A DNA stretch of 63,768 nucleotides, the filler included, from Phoronis australis (lineage: Eukaryota > Animalia > Phoronida), in assembly GCA_002633005.1 (NCBI GenBank). It is 4 parts of 4 records of this genome, joined end to end, with 100 filler letters (N's around TTAATTAATTAA, not from the genome) between each part and the next. Parts side by side here need not be neighbours in the genome. Positions count along the whole stretch, not along the records: positions 29,641 to 59,418 come from NMRA01001196.1; 3 more parts are not named here. One strand, 5' to 3'. Every line of letters begins with the position of its first letter. The first letter of the stretch is position 1. Below the pieces are notes generated by a model. The model did not search any database. It was not told the DNA's origin and worked only from the letters and a program-made list of their open reading frames with translations. Position numbers and translations under genes: made by a program. Positions 7,782-59,418 of this stretch are shown here, one piece after another.

Positions 7782-9313
7782 ACATGGACCGCCAACTCCG
7801 TATACATTCAAAGCACGAAATCTGTGATCTTACGCAAAAGCCCTTACGTCATTATTCACTGGCGACACCTGGCTAAGTTTTCTGAATCAATTTTCGGCAA
7901 GTACGTCGTCTGCTAATCCTCGTCGGCTACTGTGTGGCCGGTTGTTCGGCCACACCCACGAAATGCTAAGGAATTAGTTTCCATACCATCCGAAGACCGC
8001 ATAATCGGCTGCGGAAAGAAAAGCTTATATACTTCTTGTGCCTACGTGAATGGCAGTTGTCTCAGCAATAAGACTTTATACATTTGTTCAAGGCACTTCG
8101 AAGATGAATGTTTTTAAGAGGCTCTACTACTTAATCCTGTCCTTACAAATCCATTTTTCTTTTCTCCGTTTTGATGAAAACTATCTGGTAAACTTTTTTG
8201 ACGAAAATCGTCCGCTAAATTTCTTCCAAAGGTAGTGACTCATGAACTCCTGTCCTTACGAGGAACTTCAGTCATAGTGTAGTGAGCGAATTAACCAACT
8301 TACTCTTCGCTGGCCCTGATCAGACGGTTGGTCTCAGCAGAATGCGCACATTCGGCCAGGATTTGGATCAGCGATTTCAACAAATTCACATTCGTGTACA
8401 AATAAATAAAACGCTGGTAAAACCTTTAAGATAAATAACGATTGCATTAATACTTCAGAAATAACCAGCTGGACCAGTCAAACTCTCTCTCGCAATTCAA
8501 CAGCAGGTTACACAATATATGCCGCACTAAAGCTCTCGACTGTAGTCTATGAAAATGCAACCAACTCCTTTGAAAACATGGAACAGGAACCCCAAAGGCA
8601 TGTGAAGGTTGTTTTTATTCTTCAATGTTAAATTTGTGTAAGCGGACGAATGGTTTTTAAATTTCCGCCTTAAGTCCTAACATTTCCAAACTCAAGCCAT
8701 TGAAACGAAAGTTAATGACGAAAACAAAATTCTTCAACCAGTTTTGTAAATTCCTATGCCACATGTAAGGTACATAAAGAGCCAATCCCACTCCTAGTGT
8801 AACAAATGGGTCCCGTGCATAAAGGATACTAAGTATTGCCCTTATGAAATATTACCGTATTCGCCCTAATAAGCGGCCAGGGCGCTTGGAAAAATCCGCT
8901 TCAGGAAAGGGGCGCATATTTTAGCCCAATTTGGTTGAAACCCGGTCTCCGAAAGAGGTGAAATCATCAGCTAGAATTCATCAAATTTACGCTCTTTGAC
9001 GAATCTGTAACCTATGACAGAGTTTCTACAAAAATGCAGTGCATTGCTATCAAGCTTTGTTGTCAACTTACGACCATTTTTCAGAAAATCCCACTGAAGA
9101 AAAATTGCCGTGAATCAGGTTTCAAGCTCCTCAGCTTTTTTAACTATATATTAATAAACCATAAAAACGGTTCCAAGTGATTAGTGCATTGCCTGCGCAC
9201 GTCTATTGAATGTGTATCATGCAGCTCCTGATTTAAGCAGTGGTCTGATTTCTTAATTTTGGTCCGGTATAAATAACGCCACTGACCTGGAAATCCAGCG
9301 AAACATTTCTACC
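7782..9313 (+). mobile_element. P-element-like non-autonomous element, sibling of 44105-47974 (outermost TIR bases missing), with THAP remnant
   Basis: 7782-~8852 aligns to 44118-~45251 and ~9198-9313 aligns to ~46251-46368. THAP remnant at 7921-8117: VGYCVAGCS...LYICSRHFEDECF. Confidence 0.8.
8855..9190 (+). mobile_element. Tc1/mariner-pogo-like MITE fragment inserted in the P-like element
   Basis: TA|CCGTATTCGCCCTAATAAGCGGCCAGGGCGCTT begins exactly where homology to the 44105 copy breaks. TA plus CCGTA termini are typical of pogo-like MITEs. 8933-8992 is repeated at ~10895-10955. Right end not defined. Confidence 0.5.
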
Positions 9314-12565: not shown

Positions 12566-12632
12566 ATCGTGGTGGTGTAGTGGTAACACACGCGCTCTCT
12601 AAGCGCGAGGTCGTAAGTTCAAGTCTTTGGTA
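12566..12632 (+). pseudogene. tRNA-like sequence (SINE head or tRNA pseudogene)
   Basis: A box TGGTGTAGTGG, D stem GTGT/ACAC, anticodon stem CGCGC/GCGCG with 7-nt loop TCTCTAA (no U33), AGGTC variable loop and B box GTTCAAGTC. No intact acceptor stem. Confidence 0.55.
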
Positions 12633-14760: not shown

Positions 14761-15105
14761 GAACAATCGTGACCTTGTCTCGGCACCTGAAAAGGAGGCT
14801 TAGGCCAGAGGAATGTATTCCTACATATACTTACTATTAGGACCCAGGATCGGAACTAGGAAGCCCGAAATGGAAAAGTACATGGACACAAGTTAAAAAC
14901 CTCATTGCAAGAATAGGATAGTGACTTAAGAGTAGGCGACCCAGGCTCTTTGGGTAAACACAATACATCGATTGTTTAGTTCTAAATGTCAGCCCAGTGA
15001 GCTTATGGTCAGCCCAACTACTCGCATCAATTGTCCCGATTGACTCAGCTTTAGTGACGATTATCCTCAATACGCCACAGCCATCTTGCTCTCTTGTTTT
15101 TGCAG

Positions 15106-15263
15106 CAACCGCATTTGGTGTTTTGACCATTGGTTTCGCATCTCTGATCGCCTATCATGGCGGCACTATCATCGTGGTTGTCATGACAATACTGGGTGTC
15201 CTGACAAGTCCATTGGTTGCGGTGTACACACTTGGCCTCTTCTTTCCTTGTGTCAACTCGTAT
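15106..15263 (+). CDS. SLC5A8/12/6-like symporter, internal exon
   Basis: TGCAG/GTGAGT splice sites, phase-compatible with the previous exon; encodes (A)TAFGVLTIGFASLIAYHGGTIIVVVMTILGVLTSPLVAVYTLGLFFPCVNSY (two TM segments, LG.FFP..N motif). Confidence 0.92.
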
Positions 15264-16393
15264 GTGAGTATACATTTTTGCACAAGAAGCGACTGAATGC
15301 AAGTGCATCGCATATGTCACCAGCTCACGAATTGTTTTGGTTTTAGCGCGTTTGTGAAATTGAGGGGTTATTCTTGAAATTAAACCCTGAATTCTGAAAT
15401 GCGTTGAAGCCCCTGGATAACCAGAGCCGGATCAGGATTTTCAGTTAGGCGACCAGGGCAGAGTATTAGCCAGAATTTTGCCCGTCAGACATTATCACTC
15501 CCGAACTGCCAAATGGAATCTGGAAATATTTTAGATAGGACCATGGCCCCCTCCCCCCTTAAATCCGCCATTGATAATCATCCCCACTGAAAACCCTTGA
15601 ACAACACATCCAATCTTAGGCCCGCAGAAAACATCATTGGCGGCGTTGACATGGACACGAATGTTTCCAGAAACGTTCATTTGGTCAGTATGACGGAATG
15701 TTTTCCCTGCAATCTCTTTGCTAACACTCGGGTCGTCACCGACCCATCACCGCTACGCTGAAAATTTCAAAGTTATGTCATCACAGTCTGGTCTGTCCCG
15801 TCCAACATCGTCATCACTTTGTTGCCCTAAGATCATCTCTTCGTCAACAAATTTAAGTTAACTTGGCCTGCACTCAAGAACCCCTTGGTACCTCCCACGT
15901 CTTATTTTCCTGCTGATGAGAATTTTGTCGTGTCTTGTGATGGCGAACTTCACAGATTGGAATTTTTGTTTGTCCTGACCCAGAGGCAAACAATACTCGC
16001 TGTTAGAGTTTTGAGTCAACCTGTAGCCTGTTGAATAGGGAGGGGATATGACTAAAAAAACGTTGAGTGTGGGTACCGACTGAAGGGGAGGTGGCGGTGT
16101 TGAAACTGGTTGTGACCGGAGGGATTTCTGCAGAACCTGGGGAGCGAAGTGGTTGGCAAATTACCGACGACCGGTGGCCGAAAATGTGTTAACCGAGATA
16201 AATTTGTTTTCACATCCTCTCACCTATCCCAAAGCATTTGTCCCATGCGTCACATTGAATTATTCAAAAAGGGTGTGAACTGCCCGACAATTTTTTCTCT
16301 GCCGGACTTCATGGCGCACCATCAATACAGCCAAGCAAGCATTGATCGTGCTGCTGCCGCGCTTTATCAATCACTCGATCTGTTTCGTCACAG

Positions 16394-29640: not shown

Positions 29641-30137
29641 CCCCCCCCCTCTCGGCGCCACGCGCCTAGGATTCGACCTTTGCGGGAATCCTAAACCCCC
29701 CCTTACTGAAAACGTAGATCCGCCCCTGAATAATTAGTGATGGTTTTTGTCAAATAATACAGTCTTTTCATGGCTCAGTTTGGCCAAATGAGCTCAATGA
29801 TAGTTATCAGGTGGTGACACCTCGTTAAAAACTACCACACACGTCGCAGGAATCGATATTTTTACGTTTTCGCTTAAATAAAAATAGCTCAGTGAAGAGA
29901 AATTTTACGAGTAAGGGGGACAAGAGATAAAAGCACAATTATCACCAACAGAAATGGTCATCTGGGATTGCTTGTGAAGACCGCATGTGGTTATACAGGT
30001 GAAGAGAACTGTGACCGGATACCAGTAAAATAATGCACGCTACTGTTATAGCTTAAAAGAACTCCCTGAATCACGGCTTTGTTAACAGCGTCTGCTGAAC
30101 ACGCATTATATTTTTCAACTGTTTATTGTTCGACTAG

Positions 30138-38356: not shown

Positions 38357-40133
38357 ATGGCCCTCGGACAAGAAATGGGTCTGCAGGGGGACAATCTCAG
38401 ACAGTTTGATTAGAAACAACAAGCTGAGGCTTGTGCTGAGGCTGAGGCGGTGGAGAGAAGGCAGGCGCGAGGGGCTGAGGCGGAGGAGAGAAGGCAGGCG
38501 CGATAGGCTAAGGGGGAGGAGAGAAGGCAAGCTCGTGAGGCTGAAGAAAGGGCGCGAGAGGCCGAAGAAAGGGTGCGAGAGGCAGAACAGCAGATGGAGT
38601 GACAAAGAATGGAACACGAGAGGGCGCTAGCAGCACTGAAAGCTGAACAGGTTGCAGCGGAGGGTAGCCATGTTAGATCAACTTGTGGTGTGAAGCCGAA
38701 GCTACCTAAGTTTCACGAAAAGCAGGACGACATAGACAACTTCCTGGAAAGGTTTGAAAGACACTCAGAGAGGCAGGGTTTGACACAGAGTGAATGGGCA
38801 ATTAGTCTCAGTCCCTGTTAACAGGTAAGGGCCTGCAGGTTTATACTACCCTTCCTATGGCTGATGTACTGGACTATGCTACACTAAAAAGAGCCTTGAT
38901 AAAGCGCTATGAGCTGACCGAGGAGGGCTTTTGCAGACAGTTCCGGGAAGCGAGGGTTGAAAGGGGTGAGACGGCTTATCAGTTTCTGGCCTGCATACAG
39001 CGTTACCTAGACAGGTGGATCGACATGTCCGACTGTGGCAAAGACTTTGCCGAGTTGAGAGACATGTTAGTGCGTGAGCAGTACGTTAACACTTGTAATA
39101 AAGACTTGGCTTTGTTCCTGCGAGAGCGGATACCCAAGTCAGTTCCAGAGATGGTGGGCTTAGCGGAGAGTTATATTGAGGCCCATGGAGTGGATATAAG
39201 GAGCACTCAGTCGAAGAAATCCCAAGAACGACCAGTCAAGACAGACAACCAGAATGTCGACCAGAAGAAAACTGACCTCTCAGTGGAAAGATGTTCCTTC
39301 TGTCACAAAACTGGACACCTGGCTAGAGACTGTCGGAAGCGGACACAAGGGATGCAATACCAAAAGTCAGCAGCGGTCAACTACCGAGATTCTCAGTATA
39401 AGGAGGATTCGATGAAGTGTGCTAACCCTGAATGCGCCGTCAAACGATGGCAATGTCTCAAGGAGGGGCATGTTGGCACGAAGAAGGTCTCAGTATTGAG
39501 AGACACAGGCTGCACGACCGTTGTGGTTCGGTCCAGTCTAGTCGAACCAGGAGATATCACCTGCCAGAAGAGGTCATGTGAGTTGGCGGACTCTACCAAG
39601 AGGTGGCTGCCTGTCGCCAGGATCAACATCAAGACACCGTACTACACGGGAGAAGTGTTTGCGATGTGCATGGAGCGCCCAGTGGCCGATTTGATTATCG
39701 GGAACGTACCTGATGCCTTGAACCCAGGGGATGTTGAGCGACAGCAGAGAGCAACAACTGCCAACGAGGACAGTACAGGCAATAGCCTTGTGGAGGGTAC
39801 ACAAGATGACTCTCAAGAAGGTACTACTTCTCAAGAGAAGAAGCAAGTGGCCTCAACTCCAGAGGGAGAAGAGGTGGCCGACATATCGGTAGAAACAGAT
39901 CCTGATGAATACAGCAGGGAAGGGGTAGCAGTGACTACCAGGGCTCAAGCAGAGCGACAAACAAGCGGACATTAAGCCGTTAGCTGTGTCTCCGACTATA
40001 CAAGAGGTGGGACTAAAGCAGTTCAAAAAGCCCAGCATGAAGATTCATCAATGGAAAAGTTGTGGGAGCAAGCTGAAGCCAAAGTTCAGCGACATACCAA
40101 AGGCAAGGGGTCATACGTGATGGAGATTCAGTA
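38357..40133 (+). pseudogene. gag: Gmr1-like Ty3/Gypsy gag-protease, disrupted and truncated before integrase/RT
   Basis: Coiled-coil E/R/A repeats, then KLPKF...DDID.FLERFER...W; SCAN-like capsid (YATLKRALIKRYELTEEGF.RQFR; LVREQY...FLRER.P); Zn knuckle CSFCHKTGHLARDC; aspartic protease LRDTGC; AVTTRAQ. Stops near 38413, 38506 and 38599 and a frameshift near 38820. Confidence 0.92.
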
Positions 40134-42000: not shown

Positions 42001-44254
42001 ATGATTCCATCTGTCGATTGAATGTTACTGTTTCAGATTCTTATCTACAGGTCTGAGTTTTCAGCGTAGAGGCCTCATAATGAATTTTAAACTGAATGTC
42101 TTCTTACAAATGTCACTATTGTCATTTTGCAGGGATTCAGAGCTGTTGTTCATCCTTGTCCTTGTCTTCTTTGTCACCTCACAATCAGCTACAAAGATTA
42201 ATTTGTGTTTCTGCTCTTGTAAAGACTCTATGCTGTATTGGATTTTAAAGTAGATATACACTTTAAGCATGCCTTCTGTCACGAAAACCAACCTTTCATT
42301 TAATAGACCATGTATTATTAGTATGACATTTATCTCAACTTGTTCCTTGATAAAAATAGGTGTGAATTTTGGGCTTGTTACCACTAGAGACAGTTTCTTT
42401 AGGTTGGCTTGTTACAGCATGCCATTTCATTCACCTGACATGGTCACAACCATACTGAACTGAAGTTCTTTGCAAAACAAAAATATTTCTCATTTGAATC
42501 TCATTTGAATAAGGAAAAAGCCGAGATCAATTTTATACTGGTAGGTGGTTAAAATCAAATGTCAATTTGCATGACTAGAACAGGGTTTTATAGCCACTGT
42601 AATTGTTCTGCGAAAAATGCAACTCTATCGTCTTTAAGTGTTGATTTGTCATTGCTTACTGATACGCGATGATAGTATGAACCTTGTTTGAGCTTGATAA
42701 AACAGTTGTAGTAACTGTATATACATATAACGGCTGCTGAGTAGCACTAAGGGCACAACCATATTGCCATGTGTTCTATTTCCAGTCTAAGAAATCTAAG
42801 ATACATGTACAGACCATTAAGTGTTTTGCAATGGTCATCAAAAGTTATGATGCGATGGAGATTTATACTAAGAATTAAATGACAATATGTGCATTAGTTC
42901 TTGCGTCATCTTTCTAACTTGCATCCTCTCGCACATGTTGATACTAGCATTCAGTCTGTGCCATGGGTACGGTTATCACTACTTGTACCCAATGGTGATT
43001 TTCTTTGCCCTGTATCTTTGGTTTTAGTGTTTCAGTGCTCAATTATATTTTACACGGGTACTTCAGTGAAAAATCAAAGAAGCAGTCACAGATTAAGAAA
43101 GGTCTATACTCCACTGCCACTGGCGTCCATAATTAACAGATGCTTGAGAGAAAAACAAAGCGTGCACAAATTTGACACATGACTTCCTGGTGCCACCCAG
43201 TACATTACCTTGAGTTCAATGGTCTTGCAATGACAACACATGTTAATTGATCTATCAAAGAAACTACCATTGCTTCAGTGAACACTTGACAAAAACGTTA
43301 AAATTAATTTTGCACAGTACCTTGACGTGGATATAGACTCTAGTCAATACAAAAGGGCACGCCATTATTCTTCATTCTATTCGTTCACCGCAGAGTATAT
43401 AAGTCTGACATTTCACTTTTATATAAGTTAACCAAGAATACTTGATCACTGTTTGCCTAAATGCGACTCCAAAGCTGTGATACAGTACCTGCTTTGAAAC
43501 TGAAATGTTCATGTAACTCGGTTCAGGTTAATGCTATCAAATTGCTTCATCTGCTTTTTTTGATCCACGTGGTGTGAATTGACTACGCAATTAAAATAAA
43601 TATGTCCGCAGCTCGATTAATTGCCTGTCATGCTGCATCTCTTGTTTGTATTTACACTTCTGTTATGTTTTAATTACTACAGTCAAATGCATTTGATGTT
43701 GTGCAGGTTAAACTTTGGCACTGAAAATCCATTCTGTTAATGTGATTACGTCATTGCTGTTAAAGCTGCTATAAACCTTCAAATAAACCAAATCTTGATT
43801 TTGACCATATATTATCGGCCCAGTACACGTGATTTCTGGAATTAGAAAGAACTGATTATAGGTCTAACCTCAGCCTATCAACTTAGCTTGAAACAGCATA
43901 TTTTTTTCTAAGTGAATTCGTTCCAAGGCAAGAAACTCATACTCACCTGGTTAAAGAAAATTACTGAAAGGAGGTTTGATGCAGAAAATGGTGTAAATCA
44001 AAAGTTTATTATTGATGGAATGTGGGTTTATAGAAACTTTAATAATCCTATTGCATTAAACGAGAATGCCACCCAAAAACAACCTATTTTGTATTGATTT
44101 AGATCATAGACTATAGTACATGGACCGCCAACTCCGTATACTTTCAATGGACGAAATCTGTGAGCTTGCGCACAAGCGCTAACGTCATTATTCACTGGCG
44201 ACACCTGGCTAAATTATCTGGTGTAATTTCCGGCAAGTACGTCGTCTGCTAATC

Positions 44255-44448
44255 ATGGTCGGCTGCTGTGTGGCCGGTTGTTCGGCTACGCCGGCGAAAT
44301 GCAGAGGCGTTAGCTTCCATAGTGTACGGAGATCCCAAAATCCGCTGTGGGAGAAAAAGTTATTTTCTCGCGTCGACGTGAATGGAAGTTGTTCTTCCAA
44401 AAAAAAACTTGTACATTTGTTCACGTCACTTCGAAGATGTTTTTTAAG
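44255..44448 (+). pseudogene. THAP zinc-finger remnant (transposase N-terminus)
   Basis: MVGCCVAGCSATPAKCRGVSFH...LWEKKL.../frameshift in A-run/LYICSRHFED: the C2CH THAP signature. Confidence 0.85.
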
Positions 44449-46091
44449 AGGCTCTGGTAGGCCTACTACTTAATCCTGTCTTCACAAATCCATTTTTCTT
44501 TTCTCCGTTTTGATGAAAACTATCTGGTAAACTTTTTGACGAAAAATGTCCGCTAAATTTCTTCCAATGGTAGTGACTGGTGAACTCTTGTCCTTACGAG
44601 GACCTTCAGCCATAGTCTAGTGAGCGAATTAACCAAATTACTCTTCGGTGGCCCTGATCAGACGGTTGGTCTCAGCATAATGCGCACATTTGGCCAGGAT
44701 TTGGATCAGCGATTTGAACAAATTCACATTCGTGTACAAATAAATAGGACGCTAGTAAAACCTTTAACATAAATAAAGATTACATTAATACTTCAGAAAT
44801 AAATACCTGGACCTGTCAAAATCTATCCCGCAATTCAACAGCAGGTTACATACTCAATTATTTATGTCGACTGTATGCCGCACAAAACTTGAACCATCTT
44901 AGCCAAGTACGCTGCAGTCTATGAAAATACCGATAACTAACCCGAGTTTCAACTTCTTTGCAAACATGGAACAGGGATATCAAAGGGGTATGAAGGTTGT
45001 TTTTATGCTTCAATGTTACATTTTTGTAAGCAGACAAATGTTTTTTTTTAAATCTACCATAATTCCTACTATTTCAAAAGTATTTCCAAACCTTTGGTCT
45101 TTCAAACGTACATTGATGACAAAACCATATTTCTTCAACCGGTTTTGTAAAGTCCTACACCACCTCCACATAATATGAACCAATCCTACTCCTAATGTAA
45201 CAAAAAGGTCCCGTGCGTAACGGATACTAAGTATGGTCCTTCTGAAATATTGGATAGGTTCTGCTAACGCAACCTCGCGAAAAGTCACACAAGAACTCGT
45301 GACATGTACCATCGCGTTACAAGTGAGCAATAACGAATTGTCAGTTATGTCGAACTTTACTCCAATTAGACATTGATATTGCATTTAAAAAAGTAAGAGG
45401 TCTAATCAAGAGAAAAATACTTTTGTGACGGAAGGCGAATTTAGTCATGTAGCCGATTCAATTTTAAACAAACTCATTTGAGAAAAATACTGAAACCACC
45501 ACCTTCCATTTGAAAAATCGCCATTGTCAAACAACTGCAAACACATATAAAATCGTTTCATATGCTGTTTGGAAAAGATGCCTTTAACATAATTCAAATT
45601 CAAATTATCTTTAAGCACATAAATGTATTTACTTGATTTTTTGATGAAAACATGGATTCAAGATCCTCGTTCCAGTTCGCCATCTCAGATTTTTCCTGGA
45701 AAAAAGTCGCTTGAAATTTTCACTGTTCAAATGCAACCGTAAAGTCATTATATTATTTCCCCGTGAAATTTGCTAAAGCTATGTAACCTCATTCACTGTC
45801 CAGAATAACGAAAAACCTCGGAAGCAAGGGAAATGAACCCTAAGAGGTAGCAAGCAAGATAAAGGGGGTGGTAGGGACGTGAAGCTGACGTGTGCTAATT
45901 TTCAATTTCATACTTTTATGTGGCATTTTCATAATTTTGATTTGAGATGTCAACTCAGATCAAACGGTTTGAAAGTTCGGATTTTTAATTTGTAATGAAC
46001 TTGAGTTGCACTGCACGTGACCTTTTATGAATTTACCGTAGTTGGCTACAGACAGGCCCACCTTTATAAAAACTAGCAACGTAGACAAACG

Positions 46092-46248
46092 CATGCGCGC
46101 ACCCAGGGGAAAAGTCCAAGAGAAAGAGACGAAAGTCCACAATACGGCAGTACCCCGTTTTTTATTTTAGTTCTCACGCTTTTTGTTAGCAAAAGGTCCA
46201 CTTTGCCAGAGATTCGAGCCCCCGTATTAGAGGCTGGGTGCGCGCATG
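46092..46248. mobile_element. MITE with CATGCGCGCACCCAG TIRs and 5-bp TSD AAACG
   Basis: 15-bp perfect TIR; AAACG at 46087-46091 and 46249-46253. Confidence 0.85.
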
Positions 46249-46527
46249 AAACGTCTACACAAATTGCACCCAATGCAGCTCCTGGTTTAAACGCGGGCTT
46301 CTTTTTCAAAGTTTGGTCAGGTATAAATAACGCCACAAACATGGAGGTTCACTGAAACACGTCTACCTTACAGATGTGACAATCCCTAGCCACGGAAAAC
46401 TTGAGAGGCCGACAAAAATACTAATGATGAAATACCGGTGATGATAATCATCCACTTTGTTAATTTACTTCACCTACACAATTGGAAATAGCCGCTAAAA
46501 TGAAACTCATTCGAGTAAGCACCACGT

Positions 46528-46670
46528 CATGCGCGCCACTCAGAGGGGGGGGGTCGGAGCCCCCCCCATTTGGCAAAGTGGGCAAAAAGGTCTGCCCGCT
46601 CTCTTGTTAACAACAGTTCCATAACGTCAGGAATTCGAGCCCCCCATTTTGAAGACTGGGTGCGCGCATG
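46528..46670. mobile_element. MITE of the same TIR family, 5-bp TSD CACGT
   Basis: CATGCGCGC...CTGGGTGCGCGCATG; CACGT at 46523-46527 and 46671-46675; shares the internal ATTCGAGCCCCC with the 46092 copy. Confidence 0.85.
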
Positions 46671-46841
46671 CACGTGAGTCCCTGGACAGCCCCAATATGG
46701 TAAAACCCAAGGAGCTCAAGTCGGGGTTAAATCAGGATGGGCATAAATAAGGAAATTTACTGTATCAACAGATTAGACAAATAAGAATAAGATACAAAGC
46801 ATTGATACAGTGTACACGCGCACAATAACTGGGTCTATCAA

Positions 46842-46940
46842 TTTTCCCGCCGCAAGCGATTGAACCAATCGGATCACCAATGGCGCAAACCTTTCGAAAA
46901 CAAGCCTAATTTTTAGGGAGTCTGTTACTGCTCTTTATAT
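46842..46940 (+). promoter_or_regulatory. Putative cell-cycle-type promoter (E2F, 2x CCAAT, CHR-like, TATA-like)
   Basis: TTTCCCGC 46843-46850, CCAAT 46865 and 46877, GGCGCAAA 46882-46889, TTTCGAAA 46892-46899 and TTTATAT ~46934, 120-220 bp upstream of ATG 47061. Motif matches only. Confidence 0.45.
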
Positions 46941-47060
46941 TTTCAAAACTTTAATTTGTTATAGTTAATTTATTTGCTGTGCACCTCAATGAGACCAGTT
47001 CATATATATGCATTTAACACTATTAATACATTGTAAAACCATAGATTATGCACTATCAAC

Positions 47061-47243
47061 ATGAGCCAAAAACAGTACACCCCTTTATTAAAAAATGGGT
47101 TAAAGGTTAGAAACAAAGGACGAGAGCGTAGACAAGTTTCCATCACTTGCAACGTCGATTTTTTACGATGGACGTTGGAGAAGAACATCAGTCTGGTGAC
47201 AGCAACACGGAATCGTACGAAGGCGATGATTTTCGAAATTTGA
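47061..47243 (+). CDS. Short basic ORF (60 aa) overlapping the PHD ORF; possible N-terminus of a -1 frameshift fusion
   Basis: Good start context (CAACATGA); K/R-rich MSQKQYTPLLKNGLKVRNKGRERRQ...; T TTT TTA at 47159-47165 is in phase. Confidence 0.4.
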   Translation: MSQKQYTPLLKNGLKVRNKGRERRQVSITCNVDFLRWTLEKNISLVTATRNRTKAMIFEI

Positions 47244-47485
47244 TTCGTTGTGTTGTTTGTCATTTTTTTCCTACAGTTCAGGATTATTTGTGGATACAGG
47301 AACAAGAACTGAACGATGCAGGGTTCGTGACAACGTTGGTGAACGGTGATATCTATCTAAGGTGTTACAACTGTCATCGATATTGTCATCTCCTCTGTTT
47401 TCATCCAACCTTTCCAGATGAAAACTTTAATGAAGAGGACCTTCAGTACTTGAGTGAGCATGGCATACTGTGTGATTTATGTTGA
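47168..47485 (+). CDS. Intronless C4HC3 PHD-like zinc-finger protein (105 aa)
   Basis: Intact ORF with C28-x2-C31-x34-C66-x2-C69-x4-H74-x2-C77-x24-C102-x2-C105. It has an acidic N-terminus and stops immediately after the last Cys. Confidence 0.8.
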   Translation: MDVGEEHQSGDSNTESYEGDDFRNLIRCVVCHFFPTVQDYLWIQEQELNDAGFVTTLVNGDIYLRCYNCHRYCHLLCFHPTFPDENFNEEDLQYLSEHGILCDLC

Positions 47486-47495
47486 ATTATTCAAC

Positions 47496-47511
47496 GGTTC
47501 TTTTAAGAACC
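47496..47511 (+). terminator. Histone-type 3' stem-loop 1
   Basis: CAAC-GGTTCT TTTA AGAACC-A: 6-bp stem and 4-nt loop matching the metazoan consensus GGYYYU-UYUN-ARRRCC, 10 nt after the TGA. Confidence 0.8.
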
Positions 47512-47536
47512 ATTTCACGCTATACCTACAACCAAC

Positions 47537-47576
47537 GGCCCTTTTAAGGGCCACTCAACACTGCCCAGAAGAACTG
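47537..47576 (+). terminator. Histone-type 3' stem-loop 2 plus HDE-like element
   Basis: CCAAC-GGCCCT TTTA AGGGCC-ACTCA (stem-loop 47537-47552) has canonical A/C-rich flanks. Purine-rich AGAAGAACTG at 47567-47576 sits at the usual HDE distance. Confidence 0.88.
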
Positions 47577-48142
47577 CTCACTTGAGAATGTTGATTTATA
47601 AACACGCTTTCGTAGTTTTCTCAGTAGGCCTATGTGAACCGTAAATCAAAAACTGTCCGATAACTATGCTGCTATTGGGCAAGCAGACGACATAAAGGGT
47701 CGGAACCGAAGTTTGAATTTTGAAATTAATTACCAGTAGCATTGCCAAAAGTACTCACAATACCAACACTTCTACTATTGAAAGACTTTGAAAAGCGTTT
47801 CAATACCGAAATTGATATAAATTAATGTTTTTTTCGCTGTTTTGGACAGTAAAGTAGATGCAAGTATTTCTCGTCAAATTACACTGACCGGAAACTGCAG
47901 CTGATAGGTCAGGAGAGTTGAACTCAGCTCGTAAGAATATGCTGGAGTTGCGAATCTGTTGTCTATAATCTATGTTTAGATCGAGTAGCTCTACTCGATA
48001 ACGGCACGTTCGGTTGCGTTACCTGACACCTGACGGCAGACGGAGGAGTTGAAATTATCCAATGACGTTTCACACGCAGTCTGTTCAGCAGTTCACAACA
48101 CGGGTTAGTGGTGTCAGCTTATCGCTTGAATTTATAGTTTAA

Positions 48143-48378
48143 CAGAGGCGGATCTACAGGGGGGNNNNNNNGGGGGGGGGGGGGTGCAGGGAGCTTAACC
48201 CCCCTCGGGACAAGATCAAAAATAAAAATTGAAAAAAAAATTGCCAGAAAACCGAAATTAGCTACTAAAAACCACAGAAAATATTACACAGGAGGAAGGA
48301 AACCTTCCTTCCCCTCCTACGCGTCTCGGATTCGCTCGAATCCCAACCCCCCTTACGAAACACGCATATCTGCCACTG
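48143..48378. mobile_element. MITE with CAG(A/T)GGCGGAT-type TIRs (hAT-like)
   Basis: CAGAGGCGGATCTA...ATATCTGCCACTG; flanks AGTTTAA/TGTTTAA are similar. Related ends at ~12760-12773, 15422-15573, ~29716-29728 and 59410. Confidence 0.65.
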
Positions 48379-55308: not shown

Positions 55309-55584
55309 TATATGTTATATACAGCGTGCAGATTCGCAACTCCGACGTTTTCTCGCGTATGCTAGAGGATGTGCCACTCTCCTAAATTATCTGTTTCAGT
55401 TTCCGGTTAGTGTATTGTGACGACACAACAGCCGACCATTAGCAGACTACATACTTGCCGGAAATAAAACCTGCTAATTTGGCCAGGTGTCACTAGGGAA
55501 TAATGACGTCATTGCTGCTGTAAGAGCACAGATTTTGTCCTTTGAAAGTATACGGAGTTGGCGGTCCATGTACTATAGTCTATG
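55309..55584 (-). mobile_element. Miniature (276-bp) derivative of the P-like CATAG element
   Basis: 55430-55584 is the reverse complement of 44105-~44270 (through ATG GTC GGC TGT TGT), joined directly to sequence matching ~47870-47974. Flanks TTGTCAG/GTGTCCG match at 5 of 7 positions (decayed TSD). Confidence 0.8.
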
Positions 55585-56789: not shown

Positions 56790-58050
56790 AGGAGAATGCC
56801 ACCCGATTTAATTAGTCTTTTATGCCGTCTTGATCGGTCTATATCCACTTCGCCTCGCATACGGTCGACCTTACCTTGCCAAGAGATGTCGCTTTAACCT
56901 GTGAGGAAGGTGAGAAAGGACGCTAGCGACGTCAGTGGTTCATCTGCAGAGTGAATGCCGCTATGTTGCGGTGCATCGTTCCCGCTTGTCCGAACTATGC
57001 AGCTGCGAGAAAAGCGGGTATATCATTTTTTTCGACTTCCTCGAGAGACCGAAATGCTTAGGAAGTGACTCGTGATAGTGAAGAATGAAAAGTACGCTGT
57101 AAATAGCAAGTATGAGGCCGTGAAACATCTCCATGTCTGTGGCCTGCAGTCGTCGACAGTGCCTGACGAACGTCGGCTTACCAAGTAATTATCCAATCCA
57201 TACGTTACGTTGTCTGATCTTGTTCACGGCGCCTCTCTAATATTTCTGCATCACTGTATTCCTGTTCGAATTGATAGCCAGTGAAACTTAACGATCCACC
57301 TGCGAAGTCTTCGTAGGGATCGACTGATGAGCTCTCGTCTAAGTCGAGATTGTGAGTTGCCATGTTGATGTTTATTACTGAGCGTTTTGTTTCAAAATGA
57401 ATTATTCTCACCCTAACCAATACTTACATAAAACTGAAACAAAGTCTGCCTCATTAGATGCAATTTGTAATTCCTTTGGAGTGTTCGTGAGTGCAAATGA
57501 TTTGAGAAGCCAGCAATTAATAAATCACTGCGTTACCGGCTTTAGGTGCTCATGCTAATTTAGTGTTTGCTGGCAGAAACTGTTATGAAACAACTCAGTC
57601 GATTTCCACCCCACGGACTGTTAGGGGAGTCTTACATTTACATAATTAAAATATTGTCATTGTACAACTACTGCCCTGACGGTGCTGTGGCCAAAGCGGA
57701 ACCTAAATTCGCGGCTCCCGACGAGTAAGTAGATTTGCAATTCGTGTGTAATTCACCAACATAATAACGTGTGCATTACTTTGGCTCACTAGTATAGTAT
57801 TTTGTTGACTGGAAGTTTAGTTTCCAACTTTGGCTGATTTATGTTCGTGATGTCTGATCAGTTTCCGAGCCACTGGCCGGGATAACGAGTCAATCCGACC
57901 GGCCGCGACGGGCCTGATCGGGCTCCGAGCTACTGGCCAGGATAACAAGCGTTTTGTGTGGTTAGAACTCAAAAAATCACAAGTCTAAACAACACGGATC
58001 TAGGTTAGCCAGTCTGTATCTCACGGAAAATACTTCGAATTTGTCTCCGA
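56790..58050 (+). mobile_element. Kolobok deletion derivative (THAP start plus opposed KolX-like start)
   Basis: TTAA|AGGAGAATGCC terminus; THAP MLRCIVPACPNYAAARKAGISFF...HLHVCGL; minus-strand MATHNLDLDESSSVDPYEDF...GYQFEQEYSDAEILERRR; cut at ~58050 by a LINE fragment. Confidence 0.8.
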
Positions 58051-58600
58051 GAAGAAGTTACAATATCAAGCTGCCTTACTCATAACCGGAGCTTACAGGG
58101 GATCCAATAGTGTTAAGGTTTTGAATAGTCTCAAGTGGCCGAAAGTGTCTACTCGACGCAATCTTCACATGACCACATTTACTTTCAAGGTAATAAACAA
58201 TGTCAACAACGTTTCTGTCAAAAAAATATTTGATCTATACACTAGACAAGGCCATCGTAGTGATTTGAGATCCTCCACCCCATATGCAATTCCTCCGTCG
58301 TTCAGTCAGGCATTCAGAAGGTCTACAGTCATGATGTGCATCAACAACTGGAATTCTCTTCCAGTCTCTGTTAAGGAAAGCAACTCTTTTACGAGTATAA
58401 AAAATAATTTTAGAACTGTTTTTCATAATTTTGATAACTCAACACCCTTGACTCAATTATCTCTTCACCGCGATAATGAAATAGCATTGTACAGATCCAG
58501 ATGTGGCCTTTTCCTCAACTCTGACAAGTTCAGGCACAACTTTAGTAATGTCTCTCCAAACTGTAAATGTGGTGACCATCAATCTTATCCTCATAACCAT
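58050..58600 (+). mobile_element. CR1/L2-type non-LTR retrotransposon ORF2 3' fragment
   Basis: KLQYQAALLITGAYRGS...LKWPKVSTRR...WNSLP...RCGLFLNSDKFRHNF...PNCKCG...H: the post-RT C-terminal region of CR1-group LINEs. Confidence 0.85.
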
Positions 58601-59418
58601 GCGCACGGTCGGCTCGAAACTAAATGTACTTAGTAGGCTATCTTGTCCTTGTCAGTCGTACGGATGTTGTCTCTACTTGAGAATGAATTGTGAGTTGGAT
58701 GAGAATCACTAGTGGCAGTGATTGGAACTAGGCTCATTTGAAAAACATTGTAATCAATATTTCCATCCCTTGTTACCCTATGGTGTAGCCGCATCGCGCG
58801 TTTATTGCCGATGAATAACATAAAACTTTCCCTAATCGTCTGCACGATCCTCAGTGACAACTATGCAAACACCACTCAGACGAAGTTGGCTCGTCACAGC
58901 CGATTATTACGTGAAGTGGTTTGAATCAGAAGTAAATTCAAAATGATTACTAACTTAGTTATTATTATAGTTAGCAGCACCAGTAGGTGCAACATTTTTG
59001 TTTTTATTGTCCATCTATATCCTATCTTTAACGGTTACTGGGCTGGGGCGACCTTTTCTGCAAAGGTTAAAGGGCTTGCAATCAAATCGAATCTCCCGCC
59101 AGGTACAGAACAGGTTCGTATACCCTCAGTCCGAGGTGCACTTATGGTAGAATGGTGCCGGGAAAAACCAAGACAAAACGTAGTTTTGATTCTAAGGGAG
59201 TTGTGCGTCTACATGCATACGACCTTTGGCATTGAGAACGAATGCTACTGTCGCCTCAGGCCTCTGTGGTCATGAACACAGCAAATTGTGAAAAGAGATA
59301 AATCCCAACCCTAATTCCTTCTTTCAATTAATAAATTGAGATTTCAATCCTTCGGTCTCATGCTAACGACATGCTTTAACCACCGATTCTATCTTTGTTA
59401 TCCAGAGTCCAGTGGCGG

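Follow-up and report, generated by a model that had tools for sequence, protein, structure and literature searches.

How does a DNA transposon with a dead transposase come to carry an intact gene, and why does that gene end in the manner of a histone gene? The locus that raises this question belongs to the phoronid Phoronis australis (NCBI GenBank assembly GCA_002633005.1) and lies within a 63,768-nucleotide stretch of four parts joined end to end, hereafter the window, of which positions 29,641 to 59,418 come from NMRA01001196.1. A transposable element at 44105–47974, with CATAG at its left end and CTATG at its right, contains an intact intronless open reading frame (ORF) for a small protein with an atypical PHD finger, and the ORF is followed by two hairpins of the type found at the end of histone mRNAs. 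The reading that we favor, to which we give about an even chance, is that the element carries a selected intronless PHD gene with a histone-mRNA stem-loop, whose message is probably cut and regulated by the histone-mRNA machinery of the host.

The element and its transposase remnant

Perfect 7-bp target site duplications (TSDs), TTTAGAT, flank the element at 44098–44104 and 47975–47981 (neither assigned to a strand); besides the sequence, the left one was supported by an empty-site joint and the right one by RNA joints. The left terminus (44105–44135, + strand) consists of a short imperfect terminal inverted repeat (TIR) and a subterminal CAACTCC (44129–44135), and the right terminus (47944–47974, − strand) likewise of the subterminal motif and the TIR. 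Between the two termini 11 of 12 bases match, and CAACTCC is common to both. The window contains 1233 CATAG/CTATG pairs, one of which has a 7-bp TSD, with 0.10 expected by chance, so the proof of the element rests on reads.

Among the RNA joints (15 listed of 42), the one from 44097 to 47975, which removes 3877 bases or the element plus one TSD, was seen in three runs (39, 21, and 17 reads). A second empty-site joint with 19 intervening letters was supported by 99, 88, and 42 reads and represents the same site in variant copies. The empty-site reads stem from a host repeat family, and this very locus is not necessarily their source; judging from loose ends and empty-site joints, the outer limits of the host repeat are 44056 and 48144 (about 44056–44104 plus 47975–48144, no strand assigned). 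Loose read ends were found at both termini in runs X8 and X9 (129 and 159 at 44105; 153 and 126 at 47974), and their agreement with a consensus was only 0.44–0.49, which means many different flanks and many insertion sites. Other joints in the RNA reads, such as 44273 to 47745, correspond to internally deleted derivatives. The element is a multi-copy, non-autonomous, P-like DNA transposon, and the ends and TSD that the first-pass annotation had proposed were borne out by the sequence, the empty-site joints, and the many flanks.

The sole recognisable remnant of a transposase is a frameshifted THAP stub (about 44255–44447, + strand). With one frameshift read through, 44255–44444 matched PF05485 at 29.4 bits (cut-off 23.9; E 1.4e-6) over positions 1–59 of the 87 in the profile, in agreement with the first reading of this region, and eight further frames taken from the element yielded no Pfam match above cut-off. 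Because the P-type catalytic domain (DDE, D(2)H) is deleted in this copy and a search for a full-length relative of the stub found none, a weak negative, we call the element P-like only. The THAP domain and the 7-bp TSD fit the P superfamily, and together with the TIRs they support the earlier description of a P-like non-autonomous element. THAP domains occur in other transposon superfamilies too.

The resemblance to the P superfamily (P element, Galileo, 1360) includes the N-terminal THAP domain with C2CH ligands, the TIRs, and many internally deleted derivatives, and the accessible passages of one study give Galileo a 7-bp TSD and P-superfamily elements an N-terminal THAP domain (PMC4168063). 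Unlike these elements, ours has no catalytic domain, so that membership is not settable by the transposase; it also has a very short imperfect TIR and carries an intact but unrelated gene that brings its own 3′ signal. A literature search that reached few subscription journals listed no paper on THAP elements with CATAG ends. The two arms of the element share an inverted repeat of 13 bases (44238–44250 and 47682–47694), which is a candidate binding site for the transposase.

The PHD gene and its copies

The cargo ORF (47168–47485, + strand) is intact and intronless and encodes 105 amino acids, with an acidic N-terminal tail that bears the motif SGDSNTES, followed by an atypical PHD finger. The ligands are arranged as C28-x2-C31-x34-C66-x2-C69-x4-H74-x2-C77-x24-C102-x2-C105, which is the C4HC3 order and spacing, and the protein contains 20 Asp and Glu residues against 4 Lys and Arg. 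Canonical PHD fingers have a Trp two residues ahead of the seventh ligand, and in the cargo Ile100 occupies this position. The unusually long loops of 34 and 24 residues and the missing Trp had both been correctly noted before.

A word-based search with the cargo found 2 relatives, and a profile-based one across 1.84 billion representatives gave 7 matches, 6 of them from the cargo family; the seventh, the cyanobacterial protein P0007, was dropped, as it matches the acidic tail only. The cargo is about 40% identical to the other members of the family and has the acidic N-terminal motif in common with them. In an alignment of 13 rows, all eight ligands were present in 8, every one of the 11 rows extending to that position had Ile instead of Trp, and the motif SG-x-S-x-TES was found in 9, with a close variant in one more. 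One homologue, P0004, scored 27.7 bits on Pfam PHD_NSD, above the cut-off of 23.9, and its cluster comprises 5 intact members of 110 residues that are 87–99% alike and lie on 5 contigs of 0.7–9.2 Mb, from one or several assemblies, as would be expected for a dispersed mobile gene. A longer fused form of the cargo was looked for and not found (a weak negative), and metagenome contigs contained neither a relative of the cargo nor the exact left-end motif. Atlas matches at 0.85–0.90, to PHD clusters and unnamed ones, serve as leads only. Two matches in prokaryote genomes covered just 10–17 residues (L002 and L003), and L002 was rejected as chance.

The best of five alignment-based models had a predicted local distance difference test (pLDDT) score of 78.3. 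In Foldseek, the top five matches of this model were all PHD fingers, the first being MLL3 PHD6 in complex with histone H4 (probability 0.89, E 0.11); the single-sequence model had a pLDDT of 53.3, and fold searches with it were empty. The cargo is an atypical stand-alone PHD of an unnamed small family, and the homologue searches and the alignment support the suggestion that it defines a distinct one. The nearest folds, MLL3 and MLL4 PHD6 (PDB 6mlc, 6o7g), share the C4HC3 ligands with the cargo, and MLL4 PHD6 is described, in the part of the source available, as a reader of H4K16ac (PMC6534582). PHD fingers have also been reported within transposon proteins such as Ginger1-9_HM (PMC2836005, accessible passages), and in this respect, too, the cargo is a PHD within a mobile element. 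In contrast to all of these, the cargo family consists of stand-alone proteins of 105–114 residues and not of a domain within a transposase; the cargo has long loops of 34 and 24 residues, predicted extra helices, Ile in place of Trp, and an acidic SG-x-S-x-TES tail.

Upstream of the ORF (46843–47010, + strand) lie promoter-like motif matches: TTTCCCGCC at 46843, which we take to be E2F-like, CCAAT at 46865 and 46877, and a TATA-like motif at 47003, the presumed E2F-like site and the two CCAAT boxes lying about 300 bases upstream of the ORF. The promoter–ORF–stem-loop cassette had been described as intact; the ORF is, and two stem-loops are present, whereas the promoter consists of motif matches only. 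A 60-residue ORF at 47061 was considered as the true start and rejected, as its ATG is polymorphic and other copies have deletions of 1–10 bases. Just upstream of the cargo ORF, the right terminal repeat recurs as an imperfect internal copy (47040–47053, 10 bases exact); this copy was rejected as an inner boundary, as the homology of diverged copies continues upstream.

Variation was read from contigs that match 47020–47640 at 80% likeness, 57 from the DNA-type run X1 (organism A) and 12 from X6 (organism B), as 40 variant rows listed of 180 and picked by support. Twenty-eight of the 40 fall in the ORF, every one also present in a DNA-type contig; 17 are silent and 11 are not, and third codon positions account for 22 of them (p 1e-6). 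The ratio of non-silent to silent polymorphism (pN/pS), an unphased count with no tree, was 0.15–0.28 under different weightings of transitions (p from 2e-6 to 7e-4), demonstrating purifying selection among the copies of the cargo. The window version is identical to the deepest listed X1 contig over 47020–47387 (0 differences), whose depth is 137.5 compared with 4–43 for the other pieces listed. In the same region (47020–47640), T-to-C differences occur at 28 and 47 places in RNA and at 12 in the DNA-type run X1, possibly reflecting A-to-I editing.

Several results weigh against an intact, selected cargo that moves with the element. An uncompensated 1-base deletion at 47262 is carried by contigs that account for 79.5 of 228.9 in depth; one variant stays in frame but lacks C28 and C31; roughly one-third of the reads have a change at 47293 that would create a stop at codon 42 if it occurred alone; and the start codon is lost in some copies. 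If transcribed, upstream ATGs such as the one at 47061 would impede translation. On Pfam PHD the protein from the window scored 10.1 bits, with a cut-off of 24, only one of the five alignment-based models was confident (pLDDT 44–63 for the other four), and no Foldseek match reached E 0.001. In addition, no read or contig joined the cargo, a terminus, and a second TSD on one record, so that of the claim that the element is mobilised as a unit, what stands is the many flanks at both ends and the many cargo variants. The selection signal together with the abundance of broken copies indicates that selection acted on the cargo lineage as it evolved and that broken subfamilies were amplified alongside it. 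The selected passenger proposed at first is thus supported by pN/pS well below 1, and broken copies are common.

One different interpretation, which requires a host parent gene, is that small PHD genes, hairpin included, form a host family outside transposons, one member of which was taken up by a transposon and multiplied as its passenger, the selection signal then coming from reads of the host paralogues. Homologues of about 40% identity do occur in other assemblies, host copies are indistinguishable from element copies in short reads, and the amplified broken subfamilies indicate that the cargo is not needed in cis. Multicopy Pack-TIRs also exist in animals, where, in the sections of that report open to us, hAT or TcMariner account for 323 of 370 (PMC8277862). 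Our element resembles Pack-TIRs such as Ssk-FB4 in its TIRs, its internal protein-coding sequence, and its likely multicopy state, and differs in carrying an entire intronless gene from an unnamed family and in being P-like, whereas most Pack-TIRs are hAT or TcMariner. Against such a capture, the six family matches among the 1.84 billion representatives include no named or broadly conserved host orthologue, the homology of diverged copies extends into both flanks of the ORF, and the best homologues are near-identical copies on separate contigs. We regard this origin as unlikely.

The histone-type 3′ end

Ten bases past the stop codon lies a histone-type stem-loop with a 6-bp stem and a 4-nt loop (stem-loop 1; 47496–47511, + strand), which scored 22.8 bits in Rfam, below the cut-off. 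A second one begins 51 bases past the stop (stem-loop 2; 47537–47552, + strand) and matches Rfam Histone3 (RF00032; 47532–47578) at 34.8 bits, the gathering score being 34; it is the sole such match in the window. The two hairpins are 41 bases apart, and both are perfectly paired with differing stem sequences. About 0.005 perfect histone-type hairpins are expected per window, and two were seen, both on the sense strand and at most 70 bases from the stop. Sixteen bases after stem 2, GAAGA (47568–47572, + strand) is a candidate core of a histone downstream element, as compared with the conserved U7 box, UCUUU, given in the accessible part of PMC5054213; this box may differ from that of the U7 RNA of this organism. 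The distance from the hairpin to the downstream element is reported to matter in processing (PMC1635294, in part). The first-pass annotation had seen a stem-loop here and missed its identity as the 3′ signal of replication-dependent histone mRNAs.

Neither AATAAA nor ATTAAA occurs in the 489 bases from the stop to the end of the element (47486–47974), no splice joint was found in RNA reads over 47020–47640, where the ORF is continuous, and no histone family in Pfam matched the cargo, which encodes no histone. A contig about 85% alike spans the end of the ORF and both hairpin positions up to 47640, and none of the 40 variant rows listed of 180 falls in either stem. The cargo thus resembles a histone mRNA 3′ end (RF00032, SLBP, U7 small nuclear ribonucleoprotein (snRNP)) in its intronless ORF, in a 6-bp stem with a 4-nt loop soon after the stop, in a purine-rich stretch behind the hairpin, and in the absence of a poly(A) hexamer. 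It differs from histone mRNAs in its non-histone ORF, its two tandem hairpins, and its location in a transposon, and its processing is inferred only.

Replication-dependent histone mRNAs have been described as the sole cellular mRNAs with this stem-loop end (PMC4604434, PMC6303110), and in HeLa cells SLBP bound histone mRNAs and no other RNA (PMC4604434), according to the accessible passages of these papers. Our literature search, with the scope given above, listed no paper on histone-type ends in transposon genes; the available text of a 2026 preprint on the evolution of the pathway has no passage with "non-histone" or "transpos", and that of PMC13525598 has nothing on histone-type ends of non-histone or transposon genes.

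The reads and the downstream sequence tell against processing at the hairpins. In three RNA runs, reads covered the whole element on both strands, and antisense reads were abundant; here sense is assumed to be first-mate-minus, the library selection is unspecified, and the reads are pooled over many copies and probably often intronic. The presumed sense and antisense depths over the ORF were 28.6 and 19.3 in X8 and 24.4 and 10.3 in X9, and X10 showed an antisense excess (6.0 versus 2.3). The presumed sense depth did not drop after the hairpins compared with the ORF (29.8 versus 28.6 in X8, 33.3 versus 24.4 in X9), and in none of the RNA runs did RNA ends pile up at the expected cut. Stem-loop 1 lacks a purine-rich element behind it, the GAAGA after stem 2 pairs with UCUUU via one G-U pair, and 140 of the 180 variant rows that bear on the conservation of the hairpins across subfamilies lie outside those listed. 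An mRNA that ends in a hairpin would escape an oligo-dT library. Overall, the RNA depth neither shows nor excludes hairpin processing and weighs mildly against it.

These results would also suit hairpins that descend from a histone gene 3′ end, captured and duplicated but functionless, while the PHD gene is polyadenylated elsewhere, silent, or decaying: no RNA ends at the hairpin, reads lie on both strands, the downstream element is imperfect, and many cargo copies are broken. Such a relic, however, fits poorly with two hairpins that are both perfectly paired despite different stems and stand in the sense orientation 10 and 51 bases past the stop. In frames read by eye, the adjacent sequence showed no recognisable remnant of a histone coding region, the remaining 489 bases contain no poly(A) hexamer, and the listed variants spare both stems. 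We consider this explanation improbable.

Nested insertions, neighbors, and a proposed role of the cargo

Two hairpin mini-elements are nested in the element (neither assigned to a strand). The first (46092–46248) has CATG ends and its own 5-bp duplication, AAACG, and the second (46528–46670), 76% alike to the first over 67 bases, has its own duplication CACGT. Reads cover both at very high depth, which points to a large family. Elsewhere in the window, an older truncated relative of the element (7782–9313, + strand) is 79% identical over element bases 14–1147 (7782–8853) and 77% over 2169–2263 (9219–9313), and no cassette was found in it; a 256-base internally deleted derivative with both ends lies at 55329–55584 (− strand) and has a decayed 7-bp duplication (5 of 7 bases, by eye).

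That the cassette is an independent mobile or virus- or Polinton-derived unit, inserted into the P-like element and spreading by itself, would agree with the nested insertions that the element takes, with the older copy that has no cassette, and with one IMG/VR stretch that encodes a relative of homologue P0014 (no locus was returned), but we give it little credence: no inverted repeat in the window brackets the cassette alone, no joint among the 15 listed of 42 skips only the cassette or reveals ends of its own, the loose ends from both sides at 47600–47604 have an overlap of some 5 bases in both organism A and organism B, as expected of an insertion into a subset of copies, the element has no long ORF such as the pPolB, capsid, ATPase, and integrase genes of a Polinton would bring (no stop-to-stop frame above 122 residues), and viral contigs (three other queries), phages, and BFVD gave no confirmed relative, which leaves the proposal of a viral or Polinton insert with almost no support. 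A search of viral contigs for the hairpin pattern gave 0 tandem matches and 1 single match, which lies inside a long ORF and was taken as chance.

A block at 44470–44800 (no strand assigned) is 91–94% identical to the second window copy (about 8130–8460) with no codon-position bias, while its neighbors are only 57–84% identical between the two long copies; it is possibly a cis-acting region or the product of gene conversion. A second, convergent gene in this block was rejected, as every frame has stops and there is no codon bias. Farther away, a 389-residue ORF at 38806–39975 with a SCAN domain and a zinc knuckle is a gag-like retrotransposon remnant, and a tRNA-like match barely above the Rfam cut-off (12573–12629) is perhaps the head of a short interspersed nuclear element. 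Two further segments without a Pfam match were labeled by eye; we take 58004–58633 to resemble the C-terminus of the reverse transcriptase of a long interspersed nuclear element and 14958–15296 to resemble an exon of a membrane transporter.

How, then, might a selected PHD gene with a histone-type end serve the element? A related transposase would move the element in trans. SLBP would bind stem-loop 2 and the U7 snRNP would cut just after it, so that the mRNA would lack a poly(A) tail and be restricted to S phase, oocytes, or early embryos. The acidic PHD finger may engage a basic histone tail with no need of an aromatic cage, as suggested by its fold neighbors, MLL3 and MLL4 PHD6, and by its charge, and the protein may thereby help the element family in replicating chromatin, either by guiding insertion or by buffering silencing. 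The cargo would then be an old accessory gene of mobile elements rather than a host exon taken up recently.

Pack-TIRs and transposon PHDs are already known, and the histone-type end on a transposon gene is the most unusual feature of the locus. More tentatively, and at somewhat less than an even chance, we propose that animal DNA transposons carry a family of "histone-reader" genes for stand-alone PHDs, with mRNAs produced by way of SLBP and U7, providing a chromatin-binding helper timed to S phase or the oocyte. The cargo protein itself defines an unnamed atypical PHD family. If the proposal is true, a selected non-histone gene with a histone stem-loop inside a transposon would break the histone-only rule. 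A mobile element would then time its helper protein, through RNA processing, to replication or oogenesis, which are presumably the periods when cut-and-paste movement can raise copy number.

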